DNA of 32,000 nucleotides from an uncultured archaeon (GCA_964510585.1 CAZECW010000003.1:1-32000); one strand, 5' to 3'. Shown: positions 3,948-11,260, counted from the first letter of the stretch. Notes: generated from the sequence alone by a model not told the origin. Numbers and translations: made by a program.

Positions 3948-5630
3948 TCACGCAGTCCTTGGGATGGCTAGCTTTCCGAGAAGAAGTTCCCTTGCAGTTT
4001 CAAATGCGGCCATGTGGTCGAAGACAGCTTTTCCTTTAACTTCCTTAGCCTTTCTTAGTAGATTTTCCTCGACTTGTCTTTTTAGCGCACCAATAGCCAG
4101 TGAGCCAATGCCGTAAACTCCGGGTTTCAACTCCTTCTTGTCATCGTTTCTGTCAAGCCCACCTATTCCCAGGGGAGGGACGGCGTTAACGTCGAGGAGC
4201 AATTTTTTCGGTTTGAGGCTTTCTACGTCTTCTCTGCTGAGGAGTTGTACACCTGCCTTTGCAACAGAGAATACCATGTCAGCGTCCTGCACTATTTCCA
4301 TTATTTGCTCCTTGTTTGGAGCGAATATTCCTTTGATTTCTACACCAAACTTTTCGTTTAGATCCGAGGCTACCGTTTTCACATATTGTACACTGGCACC
4401 AGACCAGGTTTCCACCATGTAAACTTTGCAGCCAAGCTTTGCTGCTAATACGCAGGCGAATCTTCCTACCGGTCCTGTTCCCCCTAGAACTGCAACTTTC
4501 ATTTTTTCAATATTGCCCAGATTAAGGGTAACCACGGCTTCTTCAGCTTTTGCTACCAGTGCTGAGGCGGTGGTGCAAGCTCCTCTTGGATCAAAAATTA
4601 TTGGCACTTCGAAGGGCGGCACCAAGGATTTAACGGCTTTCTCGAATATTTCCTGGGCTTGATTCACATTGCTTCCACCGACAAAGATTGCGGTGTATTT
4701 TGCGCCTTTAGGTCCTCGGGAGAATATTATGTCTTGTACCAGTCTTTGAGCGTCTTCAGGCTTTACTCCACCCAGAGGAATGACCACATCGAAACCCGCG
4801 TCGTAAGCCATATTCATGTCAAATGGACTTGCATGCTGGTCAGTATCTAAGAAGTATAATATGTGTTGTCTCTGCTCCTTCTTCTTCACAACTATGGGTA
4901 TTATTTCAACATGGTTAGATTCTAGAAGGTTAGATAGTTCAGTGCTTTCCTCTTTGCTATTTATTTCCTTTTTTGCTTTAACCACGACTAAATCTACATC
5001 TAGATCGGTGCAGAGCTTGGATATTCCGTCTGCGTGACGTGGGTCACATATGAGCATGCCGGTGACATTTTTCTTTTTGATTTCTCTTGCCTGATTTAGG
5101 ACGCCACTCATTATCCACGCTTCGCGAACCCTAAATTTTATGTCGTCTTCAATTTCCTTCAAGTTTTGTTCAAAGTATTGAGCCAAAGTAGCCAGTTTTA
5201 GGAAGTTTTCATCATTCTTTTTTGCTTCTGGATTTTTGGCTAGGACTTTCGTAATCTGTTCAATTAGAATGTTTCTTAGTTCCTGTTTTCTGCTCATTGT
5301 GGACCAGATGTAGTCGCGGGCGTTATCTGCAATGTCCACATAGCTGTAAGGGATTCCATGTTTTTTAAAAACATCCACTAGAGGATTATCGTATAGAAAC
5401 TCTTCAATGCTTCTCATCCCCCTCTCCTCAAGGCAAAAGTCGGGTTTGTACTCTTCGACCATCTTGTTTATGAATTCCCTGTACTCCTTGGACATTATTC
5501 TCAGTTCTGAGAAAAAGTCTTTAGGAGGATTGAATGGTTCTAGCAGGTACCAGTCGATTCCGTATTCGCTTTCAACCATAACCAACCTTAGTTTCTGTCC
5601 CTTCAGTGGCTCTAACTCTAAAACTTCCAT
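3948..5630 (-). CDS. Fusion: N-terminal uncharacterised ~220-250 aa domain plus C-terminal NAD(P)-dependent methylene-H4MPT dehydrogenase (MtdB/MtdA family)
   Basis: From residue 256: SPFDMNMAYDAGFD, QDIIFSRGP, AIFVGG, DPRGACTT, LGGTGPVG, DVNAVPPLGI, GIGSLAIG, matching MtdB-family motifs (SPFDVNMAIDAGF, QDSIFSR, DVNAVPP). GGAGG RBS precedes the ATG. Confidence 0.88.
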   Translation of the reverse strand: MEVLELEPLKGQKLRLVMVESEYGIDWYLLEPFNPPKDFFSELRIMSKEYREFINKMVEEYKPDFCLEERGMRSIEEFLYDNPLVDVFKKHGIPYSYVDIADNARDYIWSTMSRKQELRNILIEQITKVLAKNPEAKKNDENFLKLATLAQYFEQNLKEIEDDIKFRVREAWIMSGVLNQAREIKKKNVTGMLICDPRHADGISKLCTDLDVDLVVVKAKKEINSKEESTELSNLLESNHVEIIPIVVKKKEQRQHILYFLDTDQHASPFDMNMAYDAGFDVVIPLGGVKPEDAQRLVQDIIFSRGPKGAKYTAIFVGGSNVNQAQEIFEKAVKSLVPPFEVPIIFDPRGACTTASALVAKAEEAVVTLNLGNIEKMKVAVLGGTGPVGRFACVLAAKLGCKVYMVETWSGASVQYVKTVASDLNEKFGVEIKGIFAPNKEQIMEIVQDADMVFSVAKAGVQLLSREDVESLKPKKLLLDVNAVPPLGIGGLDRNDDKKELKPGVYGIGSLAIGALKRQVEENLLRKAKEVKGKAVFDHMAAFETARELLLGKLAIPRTA

Positions 5631-5661
5631 TATTCGCCCTCCAAAATAATTTTTTAGTTTT

Positions 5662-6306
5662 TTAGTGTACCAATTCAGTTTGCCTCACACTGGTAGCTGA
5701 TCTCATCGGCAGAACTACCAAGTCTGTTTCGCTCATTTGTTTTGCTAATTCATTGAATAGATTGGATGGGGTGATGTGTATGCAGGTTACTTCTTTTTCA
5801 GGCACTTCGCTGGCCAGGTCGATTAATTGTTTTATTATCCACCTGGCGGTTATCACAGTGTTCATGTATTCCTCTTTTCCGTCTGCTTCCTTCTCGTAGA
5901 ATTCTATTAGGGATTTCAGGTTTTGTGCCTTGTAGGTGCTCGCGTTTTTAGGGTTCTCAGAGAGGAATCTTTCCAATTCTTCCTTTAATTCTTCTATTTT
6001 TTCTCTTAGGTCATCTATTTCCTGTTCCAAATATAGTCGGGCGTTTTGGGGTATTCCTAATCTGAAGAGTGGAACCCCTAACTCTCTGAATTCTTCCGTA
6101 TTCACGCTCTGACCGTTAACGCCAAACATGCAATCTTTGTCTGCAGTGATAAAGTCGGGATGATAGGTTAGAATAACGTTTAGTAAGGAGTTATCGGCCT
6201 GTTCGGTGAAGCAATCAGAATTTTTGGAAGCCTGGGAATTTCCTTCTTCATACAATACCACCGTGAGGATTTTCCCACGCAATTTTTTAATTTCCAATTC
6301 TTCCAT
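5662..6306 (-). CDS. Uncharacterised protein, stand-alone paralog of the N-terminal domain of the downstream Mtd fusion, with a coiled-coil insert
   Basis: GGAGG RBS before ATG 6306 (MEELEIKK). 31 nt gap to the next co-oriented gene. Aligns colinearly with residues 1-217 of ORF 3948-5630. Confidence 0.8.
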   Translation of the reverse strand: MEELEIKKLRGKILTVVLYEEGNSQASKNSDCFTEQADNSLLNVILTYHPDFITADKDCMFGVNGQSVNTEEFRELGVPLFRLGIPQNARLYLEQEIDDLREKIEELKEELERFLSENPKNASTYKAQNLKSLIEFYEKEADGKEEYMNTVITARWIIKQLIDLASEVPEKEVTCIHITPSNLFNELAKQMSETDLVVLPMRSATSVRQTELVH

Positions 6307-6394
6307 CTTTTTCCTTCCTCCATTTATTCTCTGGTTAAACAATAGAAGGATGTTAGGATTTAAAACTAATCTTAACTTGTCTTTTCTGAATTAT

Positions 6395-6410
6395 GACAAT
6401 TTTAATTGTC
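6395..6410. promoter_or_regulatory. Palindromic operator candidate 1 (GACAA-N6-TTGTC)
   Basis: GACAATT-TT-AATTGTC. Lies about 30 nt upstream of a minus-strand TTTTAAAT box (6358-6365) serving the leftward operon. Confidence 0.65.
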
Positions 6411-6549
6411 TTGAAAATTGTTGTATAGTTTGAATAAAAAGAGGAAAATTCATTTTTTTTGACAATTAAATTTTATTCCAAAAATTGTCTGGCAAGTCAA
6501 TTTTATTAATCCAGTTACGATAGCCATTAAGACAATAAGAATGATGTAT

Positions 6550-6569
6550 TTGACAAATATAATTGTCAA
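6550..6569. promoter_or_regulatory. Palindromic operator candidate 2 (TTGACAA-N6-TTGTCAA)
   Basis: TTGACAA-ATATAA-TTGTCAA. Lies just upstream of GAAAA-TTTTTATTAA (6581-6595), the BRE/TATA candidate for the rightward operon. Confidence 0.65.
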
Positions 6570-6620
6570 TTTTAATTTACGAAAATTTTTATTAACCAAT
6601 AAACTCTCCTTGATAAATTG

Positions 6621-9167
6621 GTGAAAAAATATAACGCAGTGACACAGATGGACTTATATAATGTTTTAGGCCACCCTCTCAGAAGAAAAATCCTCCTATT
6701 ATTAGAAAAAGAGGGTTACATGCAGTACTCAGATCTTCTCAAGGAGCTCAACATTGAAACAACGGGACAGTTGAATTTTCACCTCACAAAGCTGGGGAAC
6801 CTAATTACCAAAGAGGGAAAGGCTTACAAGCTCTCGGAAGAAGGAAAAACGGTCATCAAAATAATGGAGTTAAATGAGAAGATTCTCTCAGGTGAAGAGA
6901 TAGAAAGAATCGAGTCTCGAAAAACTGAGTTAAGCCGCGTGGGGATACTTATCTGTACCTGTGGTTCAGAGATTGAGCAGTCAATTAGTGTTGAGGCTTT
7001 GAAGAACCGTGTGTCTCGCATAAATAATGTGGTGTCCGTTGCGGTTTTTGATAATCTTTGTCAGGAGAAGAATCAGAAGAAGATTCAGAAATGGTTTAAG
7101 GACAATTTCATAAATAAGGTGGTTATTGCTGCCTGCAGTCCTCGTACGCACTCTCATATATTTAACCGCATATTTGAGAATCTTATACCCATAACAAACA
7201 TTGATTTTGCTAATATTAGGGAGCAATTATGCTGGGTGAATTCTAAAAAGCCTGTTGAAGCCTTGGAAAAAGCGGGGTTACTCATTGAGGCTGCTGTGGA
7301 GAGGGTTATCCTTCAAAGAGAGATTAAAACCAAAACTGTTGAGGTTCAAAAAAGCGTGGCTGTTATTGGTGGGGGCATTGCGGGTATGAATTTGGCTTTA
7401 AAGTTGGCGGAGGCCGGGTTGAAAGTTTATCTTATTGAAAAGTCGCCTACTCTGGGGGGGAAGGTTGCAAGGTGGAGCAAGATTGAGGGCGTCCTAGACT
7501 GCGCATCCTGTTTCCTCTCGGAACAGATTCTGTATTTGGTGCAGGAGAAAAATATTGAGATTCTCACCAATACTGAAATTCTATCCGTTTCTGGAAATGC
7601 GGGGAACTTCACCATTGAATTGGTTCGCAAGCCACGTTACGTGGATGAAAATAAGTGTACTGGTTGTAAACGGTGTATGAGTATATGCACTATTACTAAG
7701 AAAAACGAGTATGAGTACGGTTTGGATGAGAGGAAGCTAATCTACATTCCCTTTGTTCAGGCCTATCCTTATGCGGCGACCATAGATGAGGAGGATATTG
7801 AGAAATGTAGAGAATGCCGGGTCTGTGAAAGAGCCTGTCTAAATAAAGCCATAAATCTGGATCAGAAGCCTACAACAATGACCATAAAGGTTGGGGCAAA
7901 AGTTCTGGCAATTGGCTCCGACCTTTACCAAGACTTAAAGCTTTATAATCATAACCCGCGTTGGGACATCGTCACCTCTGCGGAGTTTGAGAGAATTCTT
8001 GCCTCTGACGGTCCCACACAGGGCAATCTTGTAAAACTTTCTGATGGCAAGGCGCCGCAAAAAATTGTAATTATTCAGGGTGTGGGCGATTACAGTCTTA
8101 GTTCCGATTACTGTTACATACTGTCCAGAAAGTATCTAGAAGCGATTCGGGAGAAGCTTCCCAGCTGCGAAGTTAAAGTTTTTATAGAGAACAGTAAGAG
8201 CGCTGCAAATAGGTTGGCACTCGCTAACCTGCCGGAAACTGTTCATACTGGCAAAGTATTAGGGATAAAAGTGGAGGGCGAAAGGAAAGTGATAAGTACT
8301 GAGAGGGGAGACTTTGAATCAGACATGGTTATTCTAAACATAGGTATGGTTCCAAGTAGGGAGCTGGCTGAGCTTCGCAAAACTTTGGATTTCGCTTTTG
8401 ATGATAAGGGTTTTATGTCCAAAGAGACACTGAGCTCAGGGATTTTTGGGTGTGGGACTGTTACCGGGCCTAAAGATTATCACACGGCTATAGCGGAATC
8501 TAATGAAGTAGCTCTTCAAATAATTTCTCTATTATCAAGGGATTATTTACTTGCAGACATTAGCGGTATAGATATTGACTATGATAAGTGTGGTTTATGC
8601 GGTTTGTGTATGTCTGTCTGCCCCTTTAACGCTATATCCTGTGAAGACGACAGGATTACCATTGACGATTTCAAGTGTAAGGGCTGCGGAGTCTGCGTAA
8701 GCATTTGCCCCACAAAGGCATTGGAGATGAATGTGATAACAAGAGAAAAGATTCTCAGATCCATAGAAGTTTATAGCAAGTATAGCCACAAACCCAAAAT
8801 TATGGCTTTTTGCTGTGAGCATTGCGGGTATGCGGCGGCGGATGAGGCGGGCCTAAGGAAAATACAGTACCATCCCAATATTTTCGTTGAAATGGTTCCC
8901 TGTACTGGTAGAGTGGACACCGAGTTTATTTTAAAGGCGTTGGAAAAAGGATTCGATGGGGTGCTAGTTGTAGGGTGTAAGTATGGCTCATGCAGGTACA
9001 TAGATGGAATCAACAAGTTGGAGAAAAAAATCAAAATACTGAAAGATGTGGGAATTCCCCAAATAGAGGATAGACTGGTTCTTTCATCGCTAAACGCGGT
9101 GGAAGGCTACAGGTTCGCAGAGATAGTGAACCTAATGCAGAATAAATTGTCGGAGATGATGATGTGA
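6621..9167 (+). CDS. hdrA: Winged-HTH :: HdrA-like flavoprotein :: MvhD triple fusion (start GTG 6621, or TTG 6618 / ATG 6648)
   Basis: Residues ~10-85 are an ArsR-like wHTH (LGHPLRRKILLLL...GQLNFHL..L...Y.LSEEG). HdrA motifs: ICTCG, AACSP, NIREQ, IGGGIAG, DCASC, EFER...GP, GPKD. Four CxxCxxCxxxC motifs. C-terminal MvhD motifs: FCCxxCGYAAAD, PCTGRVD, GCxxGSCRY. Confidence 0.9.
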   Translation: MKKYNAVTQMDLYNVLGHPLRRKILLLLEKEGYMQYSDLLKELNIETTGQLNFHLTKLGNLITKEGKAYKLSEEGKTVIKIMELNEKILSGEEIERIESRKTELSRVGILICTCGSEIEQSISVEALKNRVSRINNVVSVAVFDNLCQEKNQKKIQKWFKDNFINKVVIAACSPRTHSHIFNRIFENLIPITNIDFANIREQLCWVNSKKPVEALEKAGLLIEAAVERVILQREIKTKTVEVQKSVAVIGGGIAGMNLALKLAEAGLKVYLIEKSPTLGGKVARWSKIEGVLDCASCFLSEQILYLVQEKNIEILTNTEILSVSGNAGNFTIELVRKPRYVDENKCTGCKRCMSICTITKKNEYEYGLDERKLIYIPFVQAYPYAATIDEEDIEKCRECRVCERACLNKAINLDQKPTTMTIKVGAKVLAIGSDLYQDLKLYNHNPRWDIVTSAEFERILASDGPTQGNLVKLSDGKAPQKIVIIQGVGDYSLSSDYCYILSRKYLEAIREKLPSCEVKVFIENSKSAANRLALANLPETVHTGKVLGIKVEGERKVISTERGDFESDMVILNIGMVPSRELAELRKTLDFAFDDKGFMSKETLSSGIFGCGTVTGPKDYHTAIAESNEVALQIISLLSRDYLLADISGIDIDYDKCGLCGLCMSVCPFNAISCEDDRITIDDFKCKGCGVCVSICPTKALEMNVITREKILRSIEVYSKYSHKPKIMAFCCEHCGYAAADEAGLRKIQYHPNIFVEMVPCTGRVDTEFILKALEKGFDGVLVVGCKYGSCRYIDGINKLEKKIKILKDVGIPQIEDRLVLSSLNAVEGYRFAEIVNLMQNKLSEMMM

Positions 9168-9922
9168 AACTAAAATTTTCAGCAATCTCCCTTAACTCTT
9201 GCAACGGTTGCATCTCCACCCTTACCTGTCTAGATGTTTTCCTCAACCTTGTAAAATCCGCGGAAATAGTATACTTCCCCTTTGTTGAGGACTCCTACCC
9301 CGCCACAATAAAGGAAGACGAAGAACTAAAATATTCTGACGTTACCCTTGTTGAGGGATGTGTTACCCAGAAGGATGAAGAAATATTACTGAAAAAGCTG
9401 CGAAAAGCATCCAAAAAAATAATTGCACTCGGCGCCTGCGCTATGTTTGGGGGGATAGAAAGCCTATCACAGAATGCTCGAAGGGACCCTCTCTCTAAAA
9501 TCATAGAAATCGATGGATGTATACCGGGTTGCCCCCCACCTGAAAATGTTCTGGGAGCATCTATACTTTCACTAATTGAGGGCAGGAATCTTCCCGAAGC
9601 AAGCAGGAATCTCTGTGCAGTTTGCGATTTGAGGCCCAAACTGGAAAAATTCAAAACAATCCGTATAGAGAAATTACAACCCCAAAAGTTTCCCACCAGC
9701 TGTTTCCTCGACGAAAACGTGCTCTGTTTAGGTCCGGTGACCCGTGAAGGATGCGATGCAAAGTGTATCAAAGTGGGGCTGCCCTGTGAGGGGTGTATGG
9801 GGCCTCCCAACGGTTTAGACTATACTGCTAATGTAATCAACTTCCTCTCAACACTGGAATTATCAGAAAAGTTGAGAACTTATGAAGGAATTATTTTTAG
9901 GCTTCGCCGCCCAAGGACGTGA
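9164..9922 (+). CDS. mvhG: [NiFe]-hydrogenase small subunit, MvhG/VhuG-like (group 3c-type)
   Basis: SCNGC, VEGC, LGACA, PGCPP, plus distal CAVC..CFL..CLGPVT..GC...C...PCEGCMGP. GTG start overlaps the hdrA stop by 4 nt (GTGA). Confidence 0.88.
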   Translation: MKLKFSAISLNSCNGCISTLTCLDVFLNLVKSAEIVYFPFVEDSYPATIKEDEELKYSDVTLVEGCVTQKDEEILLKKLRKASKKIIALGACAMFGGIESLSQNARRDPLSKIIEIDGCIPGCPPPENVLGASILSLIEGRNLPEASRNLCAVCDLRPKLEKFKTIRIEKLQPQKFPTSCFLDENVLCLGPVTREGCDAKCIKVGLPCEGCMGPPNGLDYTANVINFLSTLELSEKLRTYEGIIFRLRRPRT

Positions 9923-9928
9923 AATGGA

Positions 9929-11260
9929 ATGAAGAAAATTATTGAACCGGTTACAAGAATTGAGGGACACGGGAAAATAACAGTATACCTTAATGATAAG
10001 GAAGTCTCCAACGCTAATTTTGACATGTATCTACCTCGAGGATTCGAAAAAATTTTAGTGGGAAAATTGGTGGAAGATGTTCCCAGAATCACATCCCGAA
10101 TATGTGGACTCTGCTCCTCAGCACACGCAATAGCAGCCTGCAAAGCATTGGAAAAAATATATGACGTTACCCCATCTAAATCCTCCATTCTTATGAGAAA
10201 ACTCCTCCTTGCCGGAGAGCTTATAAGATCCCATGCATTGCACTTCTTTTACTTTGCACTTCCCGACCTAAAAGCATTGATAGAAAATGATTATGAAAGG
10301 TATAGTGTCCAACAGTTCTCAAAAATAGAAACAGACCTAGTTGAAAAATTGTTCAGAGTAATTAGAATTGGAAATGAGCTCCTAGACCGCATTGGGGGAA
10401 GGGTACCCCACCCAGTAACCAGCGTAGTGGGCGGAATCTCTAAAAAATTAACAGAAAAAGAAGTGGTAGGACTACAGTCTAACCTTAGAAGAGGCGCCAG
10501 CACAGTGAGAGGAATAATAGAGAAACTATTAGAGTACATGGGTAAGATTGGTGAGCCGCAAGAATTCTTCAACATGGACGAAACAGCATTTATGGCACTA
10601 AATGAAGGCGGCAACTTCAACCTATATGAAGGAAAACTCCGCATCACCAAAGAAAAAAAGATTCTGGCAGACTTCGAACCAGAACAATACACCAAATACA
10701 TAGAAATTGAGAAAAAATCACAGGGAATCCAAATTAAACTTAACGGAGAAAAGCTAGTATTAACCGGGCCCATGGCCAGAAACCAAATAATCGAGAGATA
10801 CGGGGCCTACGAAGTACACAGCTTGATGGAAGAAGTGCCCACCAGCTGGAAGGAAAGCCTTCTTTACTCAAACTTTCTCAGACTCATAGAAATACTTGCC
10901 TCGATATACGATGCAATACTCATACTCAACGAGCCAGAACTAATGGAAGAACGAGAACTTCCCCAACTCAACAAAATCGCCACACCAATAGGCATCGGAG
11001 TGGTAGAAGCACCCAGAGGAACACTAATACACCAGTACAAAGTAAACACTAAAAACACAGTTGAATCAGCAACCATCATCACCCCCACAGAACTCAACCT
11101 CCCCACCATCAACCAAAAATTACTAGAAACATGCAGAGACAGCTACCAAAACACACAAAACATAGAGAAACTAAAAGAAAACGCAAAAAGAGTCATAAGA
11201 ACATTCGACCCCTGCGTCTCATGCGCAACCCACCTAATCGTCAAAATAATCCACCAATAA
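9929..11260 (+). CDS. mvhA: [NiFe]-hydrogenase large subunit, MvhA-like
   Basis: EPVTRIEGHG, PRGFE, L1 RICGLC, EAPRGTLIH, L2 DPCVSCATH followed by an 8-aa extension. Confidence 0.9.
   Translation: MKKIIEPVTRIEGHGKITVYLNDKEVSNANFDMYLPRGFEKILVGKLVEDVPRITSRICGLCSSAHAIAACKALEKIYDVTPSKSSILMRKLLLAGELIRSHALHFFYFALPDLKALIENDYERYSVQQFSKIETDLVEKLFRVIRIGNELLDRIGGRVPHPVTSVVGGISKKLTEKEVVGLQSNLRRGASTVRGIIEKLLEYMGKIGEPQEFFNMDETAFMALNEGGNFNLYEGKLRITKEKKILADFEPEQYTKYIEIEKKSQGIQIKLNGEKLVLTGPMARNQIIERYGAYEVHSLMEEVPTSWKESLLYSNFLRLIEILASIYDAILILNEPELMEERELPQLNKIATPIGIGVVEAPRGTLIHQYKVNTKNTVESATIITPTELNLPTINQKLLETCRDSYQNTQNIEKLKENAKRVIRTFDPCVSCATHLIVKIIHQ

Follow-up and report, generated by a model that had tools for sequence, protein, structure and literature searches.

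The closest functional parallels to the system analyzed here are probably the bifunctional enzyme-regulators of the PutA, RbkR and BirA class. PutA of enteric bacteria is a proline-utilisation flavoenzyme that also acts as the repressor of the divergent putA-putP control region. MsvR of methanogens is a stand-alone protein with an HTH and a V4R domain that recognizes TTCG-N7-9-CGAA boxes and is not an enzyme subunit, and SurR carries a CxxC disulfide switch and exerts an effect that depends on the position of its site. SurR, a stand-alone winged helix-turn-helix (wHTH) protein of Thermococcales, regulates hydrogenase operons and its own gene, both activating and repressing, and binds GTT-n3-AAC (PMC7289023). 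RbkR is an archaeal fusion of a riboflavin kinase with a wHTH domain that has a small regulon and operators predicted by comparative genomics in front of its own gene and of genes of its pathway; CTP and FMN modulate its binding to DNA, which was validated by EMSA and a DNA crystal structure (PMC5397151).

The stretch of DNA analyzed here (the window, 32,000 nucleotides from an uncultured archaeon, GCA_964510585.1 CAZECW010000003.1:1-32000) contains a divergent promoter region with two palindromes of the form GACAA-N6-TTGTC next to a gene for a fused wHTH-HdrA-MvhD protein. We estimate at about 72% the probability that these palindromes are operators of this fusion protein and, jointly, that the regulon is small and local, consisting of the hydrogenase operon that includes the fusion gene and the operon of an unnamed protein and an MtdB-like protein. 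Like PutA, the fusion is a flavin redox enzyme with an N-terminal DNA-binding domain and is associated with several operators in a long divergent intergenic region, with its own and the facing gene under control, which in the present case is a prediction. PutA, however, is bacterial, contains a ribbon-helix-helix domain, recognizes GTTGCA sites and associates with the membrane upon FAD reduction, whereas the predicted regulator described here combines an ArsR-type winged helix with an HdrA-MvhD hydrogenase module and faces archaeal TATA/BRE promoters. With RbkR it shares the fusion of an archaeal enzyme to a wHTH-like domain and predicted operators upstream of its own gene, but it is an 839-aa iron-sulfur flavoprotein as opposed to a small kinase, its motif is different, and the support for its operators comes from comparative genomics. 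In contrast to SurR, the domain contains no cysteine, is fused to an enzyme and is linked to a different motif. The ArsR/SmtB repressors, such as CadC, SrnR, HlyU and PagR, resemble it in the predicted fold and in having palindromic operators at their own promoters; the differences are that the domain belongs to the DUF7347 family and is fused to a large enzyme, and that the palindrome has a 6-6-6 layout in contrast to the classical 12-2-12 ArsR operator. As with MsvR, a redox-related archaeal regulator would be divergent from the operon that it controls, with shared intergenic sites affecting both promoters.

The organism is a hot-spring Asgard archaeon (Ca. Jordarchaeia): the topoisomerase VI genes establish its archaeal identity, and the locus is 98% and 90% identical to loci of MAGs named Ca. 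Jordarchaeia and Ca. Jordarchaeum madagascariense, respectively; a search for SSU rRNA in the assembled genome produced none. The single 839-aa frame encompasses the DUF7347 winged helix, the FAD and Fe-S (ferredoxin) domains of HdrA, and MvhD. Its ATG at 6648 agrees with the orthologs and with the public 839-aa gene call, and the candidate starts TTG (6618) and GTG (6621) were discarded, given that the G002 ortholog either has them out of frame or lacks them and that the public call uses ATG 6648. The protein is publicly annotated only as 'hydrogenase iron-sulfur subunit' or 'FAD-dependent oxidoreductase', neither DUF7347 nor an HTH-HdrA fusion was the subject of any paper found in a literature search, and the paper on Atabeyarchaeia does not mention such a fusion. 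Thus, the protein has not been previously recognized as a regulator in the papers found or in public annotation. The features of the locus are collected in Table 1, where G000 is the genome of the window, and G004, G002 and G001 are the other Jordarchaeum genomes with this locus.

Table 1. Predicted regulatory elements and genes of the divergent locus, in window coordinates.
Feature	Position	Strand	Remarks
Site 1 (distal operator, predicted), TGACAA-N6-TTGTCt	6394..6411	.	exact, unique; kept in G004, G002 and G001 with changed spacer
Site 2 (proximal operator, predicted), TGACAA-N6-TTGTCA	6551..6568	.	centre at -88 from the hdrA start codon
Auxiliary half-site TTGTC	6377..6381	.	between site 1 and the - strand TATA; kept in three Jordarchaeum species
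Half-site GACAATT	6461..6467	.	mid-intergenic; genus-conserved as TTGACAATTA
Half-site AATTGTC	6483..6489	.	present in G000 and G004, lost in G002
Auxiliary half-site GACAA	6531..6535	.	21 bp (two turns) upstream of the left arm of site 2; genus-conserved
Predicted TATA box TTTTAAAT of the unnamed-protein/MtdB-like operon	6358..6365	-	invariant in the genus alignment
BRE/TATA-like element GAAAAT + TTTTATTA	6581..6594	+	12 nt downstream of site 2; candidate hdrA-operon promoter in the genus
wHTH(DUF7347)-HdrA-MvhD fusion gene, 839 aa, ATG 6648	6648..9167	+	proposed binder; wHTH at ~6648-6890
mvhG-like [NiFe]-hydrogenase subunit gene	9164-9922	+	Oxidored_q6; co-directional with the fusion gene
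mvhA-like [NiFe]-hydrogenase subunit gene	9929-11260	+	NiFeSe_Hases; co-directional with the fusion gene
Divergent operon, unnamed-protein and MtdB-like genes	3948..6306	-	orthologous pairs face HTH-hdrA in other lineages
Unnamed 214-aa protein gene	5662-6306	-	divergent operon
Gene for a 560-aa protein: same N-terminal domain as the 214-aa protein plus MtdB-like (Mpt_N) part	3948-5630	-	

The GACAA-N6-TTGTC core of site 1 is GACAATTTTAATTGTC (6395-6410), and site 2 is the palindrome TTGACAAATATAATTGTCAA (6550-6569) with the core at 6552-6567; the centres, 6402.5 and 6559.5, are 157 bp or 14.95 turns apart. These coordinates were re-checked on the window, and all positions of palindromes and half-sites as well as the centre distance given in an earlier reading of the sequence by itself (the sequence-only reading) turned out to be correct. 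The same reading had spotted no full motif elsewhere in the window, and indeed the exact pattern occurs there only twice, compared to 0.04 expected, with two or more copies in none of the 100 shuffles; in the 3.78-Mb genome, the exact pattern again is found twice, both times at this locus, so the motif does not follow the AT-rich background frequency, a caveat of that reading. Spacers of other lengths yield 0-4 copies each genome-wide. The words GACAA and TTGTC occur 8 times within 193 bp (0.30 expected), which is the densest 200-bp window of the genome, and site 2 is the only perfect match in the genome to the 18-mer TGACAA-N6-TTGTCA. The degenerate motif has 13 copies, mostly in coding regions and not enriched. 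A wider regulon in this genome was rejected because the additional one-mismatch and degenerate matches are mostly coding and no more frequent than those with other spacers. Only two other degenerate matches are intergenic (C27:42380 and C145:3690). The first of these, tTGATAAAAATGTTTATCg (locus L127:1581-1596), lies in a divergent intergenic region between genes for a B12-binding corrinoid protein and an unknown 176-aa ORF and may be either an extra target or a chance match.

Within Jordarchaeum, both arms of both palindromes are kept in G004 (97% protein identity) and G002 (86%), the spacers are altered, and the two palindromes persist while the rest of the intergenic region has diverged. Despite small indels between the sites, their spacing is 157, 158 and 157 bp in G000, G004 and G002, respectively. 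The half-sites at 6377, 6461 and 6531 are kept in both of the other species that carry the locus, unlike the one at 6483 which is probably not essential given its loss in G002. In G004, the exact palindrome is found only at the two equivalent sites; in G001, one copy is at the equivalent locus, where the contig breaks off right after site 1, and one further, unrelated copy has a GC spacer. Two additional intergenic exact copies of GACAA-N6-TTGTC with AT-rich spacers are present in G002 (C409:1422 and C415:7553; loci L034 and L035). One of these extra copies separates the genes for an epimerase and an aspartokinase-like protein and is accompanied by a half-site GACAATTAG, and the other one is about 100 bp upstream of a proteasome alpha-subunit gene. 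In two further Jordarchaeum species, represented by genomes G003 and G005, neither the fusion gene nor the MtdB-like gene is present, and there is no exact GACAA-N6-TTGTC copy with an AT spacer; the absence of both genes suggests that the divergon is gained or lost as a unit.

Among the strain variants listed for hot-spring runs other than that of the window, 6562 A>G falls in the spacer of site 2, 6467 T>C affects the outer T of GACAATT, and 6482 A>T is immediately next to AATTGTC; no listed variant hits the 5-bp arms. A block GTCAATTTTAYTAATC at 6495-6510, between half-sites, is common to all three Jordarchaeum species and resembles the site 1 word GACAATTTTA without being a full site. In a contig of run X7 (labelled metatranscriptomic), the flanks of both palindromes match, and the 138 nt between them (6410-6549) are replaced by 139 unrelated letters, which fits a relative similar to G002 with the spacing preserved.

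An ortholog of the wHTH-HdrA-MvhD protein, of about 850 aa, is encoded in approximately 100 of the 400 Asgard genomes (E < 1e-28 for the N-terminal domain match). For comparison, 87 upstream regions of 500 bp from non-Jordarchaeum Asgard lineages were analyzed. The pattern GAYAA-N6-TTRTC occurs 61 times in 49 of these regions, which span at least 16 genera and 6 families, whereas any other spacer length between 0 and 14 yields 0-3 occurrences, and everted and direct arrangements yield 0-4; the motif is thus conserved upstream of orthologous loci, as the sequence-only reading required of a genuine operator. The ortholog loci are phylogenetically related, so these locus counts overstate independence. 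The flanking T and A, which were not used for ascertainment, are 81% conserved, yielding the consensus TGAYAA-N6-TTRTCA; with one mismatch allowed, it has 92 matches in 54 regions versus 0-10 for other spacers. The usual arrangement includes a distal and a proximal site. About one third of the orthologous 500-bp upstream regions lack a site; in some of these cases, the site is instead found further upstream of a co-transcribed gene, which does not apply to family f16 and parts of families f24 and f29, where there is no site or only the core. In the first 27 distant orthologs, an enrichment analysis of k-mers missed the motif, as one genus with sites further upstream dominated this set.

These counts bear directly on the possibility that the palindromes are not regulator sites at all but rather basal promoter words, AT-rich repeats or a leader-RNA hairpin. 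The region is AT-rich, the spacers are also AT-rich and sometimes TATA-like, and site 2 could be part of a leader if transcription starts upstream. Nevertheless, this explanation is very improbable: the strict N6 spacing, compared to the 0-3 occurrences at other spacings in the same AT-rich sequences, excludes an effect of composition, the motif is absent from the other promoters of the genome, and separate canonical TATA boxes flank the sites. The hairpin variant was rejected given that the arms do not covary, with 26 complementary and 34 non-complementary Y/R combinations (30/30 expected) and no compensatory changes; an Rfam scan of 6250-6700 found no match either. The independent variation of the half-sites, seen in the aligned sequences, argues for protein contacts, for which it is expected, and against a hairpin. 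A bacterial -35 box, suggested by the word TTGACA, was dismissed because the organism is an archaeon.

The distribution of the motif across genomes with different gene orders is informative with respect to the identity of the binder. Whole-genome scans of other genomes give 0-7 exact 18-mers each. Of the four exact sites in G203 (3.3 Mb), three are at two operons and the fourth is inside a coding region. In particular, two sites 168 bp apart precede an FrhB-like gene located upstream of HTH-hdrA, and the third is upstream of an unnamed-protein/MtdB-like pair that is 9 kb away and not divergent from hdrA, with an equal arrangement of half-site and TATA at this separate MtdB-like operon. In G202, two of the three sites are at the locus and the 168-bp pair is repeated, and in G166 the divergon is organized as in the window. 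The motif stays with HTH-hdrA where the divergent neighbour changes. Conversely, in the two genomes checked that encode an MtdB-like protein but no fusion (G021 and G006), the motif is missing from the 1.4 kb in front of the MtdB-like gene. Together with the sites in G203, this absence indicates that the motif follows the fusion gene, with the MtdB-like operon being a second conserved target.

In genus g10 (L129 = G203:C1:2063500-2068000; L135), the FrhB-like gene that precedes HTH-hdrA is co-directional with it, the gene divergent from this pair is HdrA-like and occupies two frames, of 101 aa and 472 aa, and the separate unnamed-protein/MtdB-like operon has a ferredoxin/CCG (HdrD-like) gene facing it. 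In the fusion-less locus L138 of G021, a word TATATAC / TATATACT is repeated about 30-250 nt upstream of the MtdB-like gene and may be the site of a different regulator.

The palindromes could alternatively be operators of a different, unlinked transcription factor, with the fused winged helix being involved in protein-protein contacts or having some other role. The link between the domain and the DNA comes from genome comparison, winged helices can mediate protein contacts, and some families of orthologs, such as f16, possess the fusion without a recognizable site. However, this possibility appears unlikely because the motif tracks the fusion gene as opposed to the partner operon, persisting next to new divergent neighbours and missing upstream of the MtdB-like genes of the two fusion-less genomes, because the recognition helix is almost invariant, and because a local regulon is typical of a cis-encoded autoregulator. 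The sequence-only reading had taken the adjacent HTH-HdrA protein as the most parsimonious binder, and comparative genomics, which shows the motif recurring with the fusion and essentially confined to the regulon, lends support to this choice. Being unique in the genome and conserved across the phylum where HdrA carries a DNA-binding domain, the palindromes are most likely the sites at which the enzyme acts on its own genes and on the neighbouring C1-metabolism operon.

The properties of the domain itself are compatible with its role as the candidate binder. The fusion protein carries the only DUF7347 domain of the genome above the cut-off (49.5 bits, cut-off 27.6), and no other DNA-binding domain turned up in those neighbouring genes that were covered by the Pfam scans. 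In the AlphaFold2 (AF2) model, the N-terminal 85 residues fold confidently, with pLDDT of about 90 over residues 11-80, and the succession of elements (H3-7, H10-22, H27-34, H39-52, E53-56, E59-62 and H64-81) reproduces the ArsR/SmtB topology alpha1-alpha2-alpha3-alphaR-beta1-beta2-alpha5. The top Foldseek matches are all of the ArsR/SmtB/HxlR type, including YodB (E ~1e-3, TM 0.5-0.76). At the sequence level, the scores for Pfam HTH_20 (18.8 bits) and HTH_5 (16.4 bits) are below the respective cut-offs of 27 and 22, the best PDB match, the ArsR-like protein 1y0u of A. fulgidus, is weak (E 0.011), and a look-up of residues 11-260 in the ESM Atlas gave no usable match. The orthologs are 49-83% identical in the domain, and the predicted recognition helix TTGQLNFHLxK is almost invariant, in parallel with the invariant half-site. 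In alignment A1, residue 47 of the recognition helix is Thr in Jordarchaeum and Lys in all other orthologs; the Jordarchaeum sites contain only GACAA, and the other lineages mix GACAA and GATAA. These two observations may reflect a difference in specificity.

HdrA enzymes are dimeric, ArsR-type domains dimerise, and the sites are two-fold symmetric; prediction of a homodimer of two copies of wHTH residues 1-90 scored 0.38, for a mark of 0.42, and counts neither for nor against a dimer. No cysteine precedes residue 103 in the ATG-start protein, which excludes a SurR-like thiol switch in the wHTH. Neither the CxxC in the DNA-binding domain nor the GTT-n3-AAC operator of SurR is found here, the motif being TGAYAA-N6-TTRTCA. 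No metal-site residues were identified in the wHTH, which has no obvious sensor of its own and is joined to the first Fe-S motif of HdrA by a stretch of about 15 residues for which the prediction is poor. Rex regulators consist of a wHTH followed by a Rossmann NAD(H) domain and bind the operator TTGTGAA-N4-TTCACAA; the Rex family is not represented among the Pfam matches, and both the half-site and the spacer are different.

The position of the sites relative to the promoters differs between the two sides of the intergenic region. From site 1, the predicted minus-strand TATA box is 28 nt further on, and this distance is conserved across the phylum; with TTTTAAAT at 6358-6365, the centre of the site is about 41 bp upstream of the TATA centre. 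Orthologous regions contain a TTTAnATT box 28-31 nt beyond the distal palindrome in the direction of the divergent gene, such that the palindrome-to-TATA architecture of site 1 is found in about 25 other Asgard loci, followed by a Shine-Dalgarno sequence and ATG about 70 nt after the TATA-type box. Just before this TATA, the orthologs carry a TTGTCA-like half-site, cTTGTCAaa, in the orientation opposite to that of 6377. On the hdrA side, many lineages have the proximal site centred between -82 and -94 relative to the start codon, and a TTRTCA-like half-site is often located 21 bp from the proximal palindrome. A perfect TTTAWATA is present within 16 nt upstream of 16 of the 38 unique proximal sites (none in the control window), and a match of at least 7 of 8 positions upstream of 22 (4 in the control window). 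In Jordarchaeum, the box upstream of site 2 is degenerate, with 4-6 of 8 positions, and the GAAAAT + TTTTATTA element is 100% conserved in G000, G004 and G002 amid diverged sequence but is not found at the equivalent place in other lineages.

The location between TATA and the transcription start is the classical position of archaeal repressors. Given that the proximal site occupies this position in most lineages, autorepression at the proximal site most likely is the ancestral mode, judging from the comparison of orthologs; autorepression at site 2 in this genus would be an extrapolation because the geometry differs from the majority pattern. The sequence-only reading had placed each palindrome just upstream of a TATA-like box. 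This description holds for site 1 throughout the phylum and applies to site 2 within the genus, thanks to the BRE/TATA-like element 12 nt away, but does not extend to most other lineages, in which the canonical TATA is directly upstream of the site.

That reading also suggested that the twin sites, located on one face of the DNA, could act by looping or as activator sites upstream of both TATA boxes. The 157-bp distance of about 15 turns is arithmetically correct and is maintained in the three Jordarchaeum species despite indels, genus g10 has a spacing of 168 bp or 16.0 turns, and in Jordarchaeum both sites are upstream of conserved TATA-like elements. In other lineages, however, the spacings are 96, 119, 133, 143, 146, 168, 184, 234 and 267 bp, including 119 (11.3 turns), 133 (12.7), 143 (13.6) and 184 (17.5), and show no significant periodicity (Rayleigh p ~0.1, for non-independent data). 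Helical phasing as a conserved constraint was rejected given this range, and accordingly phasing and looping are not supported; what is fixed instead is the distance between each site and its own promoter, and even promoters separated by 9 kb both retain sites. Activation is not supported either given that the equivalent proximal site is mostly between TATA and the start. Looping or dual activation therefore seems an even less probable alternative than an unlinked factor, and the arrangement across genomes indicates that each site is positioned relative to its own promoter.

Under the preferred reading, in which the palindromes are operators of the fused protein, the ArsR/SmtB-type domain would bind TGAYAA-N6-TTRTCA, with a dimer presumably contacting the two half-sites independently. 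Site 1 and the half-site at 6377 would be upstream of the BRE/TATA of the minus-strand promoter, at about -67 from the predicted start, from where the regulator could either recruit or block TFB/TBP. Site 2 would correspond to the proximal site, which most lineages have between a canonical TATA and the hdrA start, and occupancy of the proximal site would block RNA polymerase, resulting in autorepression. As in trigger enzymes, catalytic and DNA-binding domains are present in one polypeptide, and a specific operator is predicted, by comparative genomics, at its own and functionally linked genes. On a more speculative note, the redox or assembly state of the flavin/iron-sulfur enzyme may modulate its binding to DNA. 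It should be noted that an abundant enzyme subunit would be an odd regulator for two or three sites unless its binding is switched.

We tentatively generalize this scheme to Asgard archaea, as a possibility that we consider to be short of even odds: a group-3c-type HdrA-MvhD subunit would itself be a transcription factor, the redox or assembly state of which (reflecting H2 supply and acceptor load) gates operator binding, and would repress its own operon from a position between TATA and the start and control the MtdB-like C1 operon from upstream of BRE/TATA. To our knowledge, the regulation of genes is almost uncharted in the Asgard archaea, the prokaryotes most closely related to eukaryotes. 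Hydrogen metabolism is central to the current syntrophy models for these organisms. The analysis adds a phylum-wide operator definition, a predicted regulon of two operons, the geometry of the promoters and the evidence against phasing. The combination of a defined operator, a candidate binder embedded in a hydrogenase and a regulon of two operons makes for a directly testable circuit. If the proposed scheme is valid, an enzyme-embedded H2/redox sensor would link hydrogen metabolism to the methyl branch of carbon fixation, and redox-gated DNA binding, if confirmed, would make this the first HdrA-type enzyme with a demonstrated role as a sensor-regulator.

The fusion protein also has numerous matches in these genomes. 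When used as a query, it produces 27 matching stretches in G000 and 20-30 in most of the close relatives, and many of these are HdrA-like genes with in-frame TGA codons that presumably encode selenocysteine.
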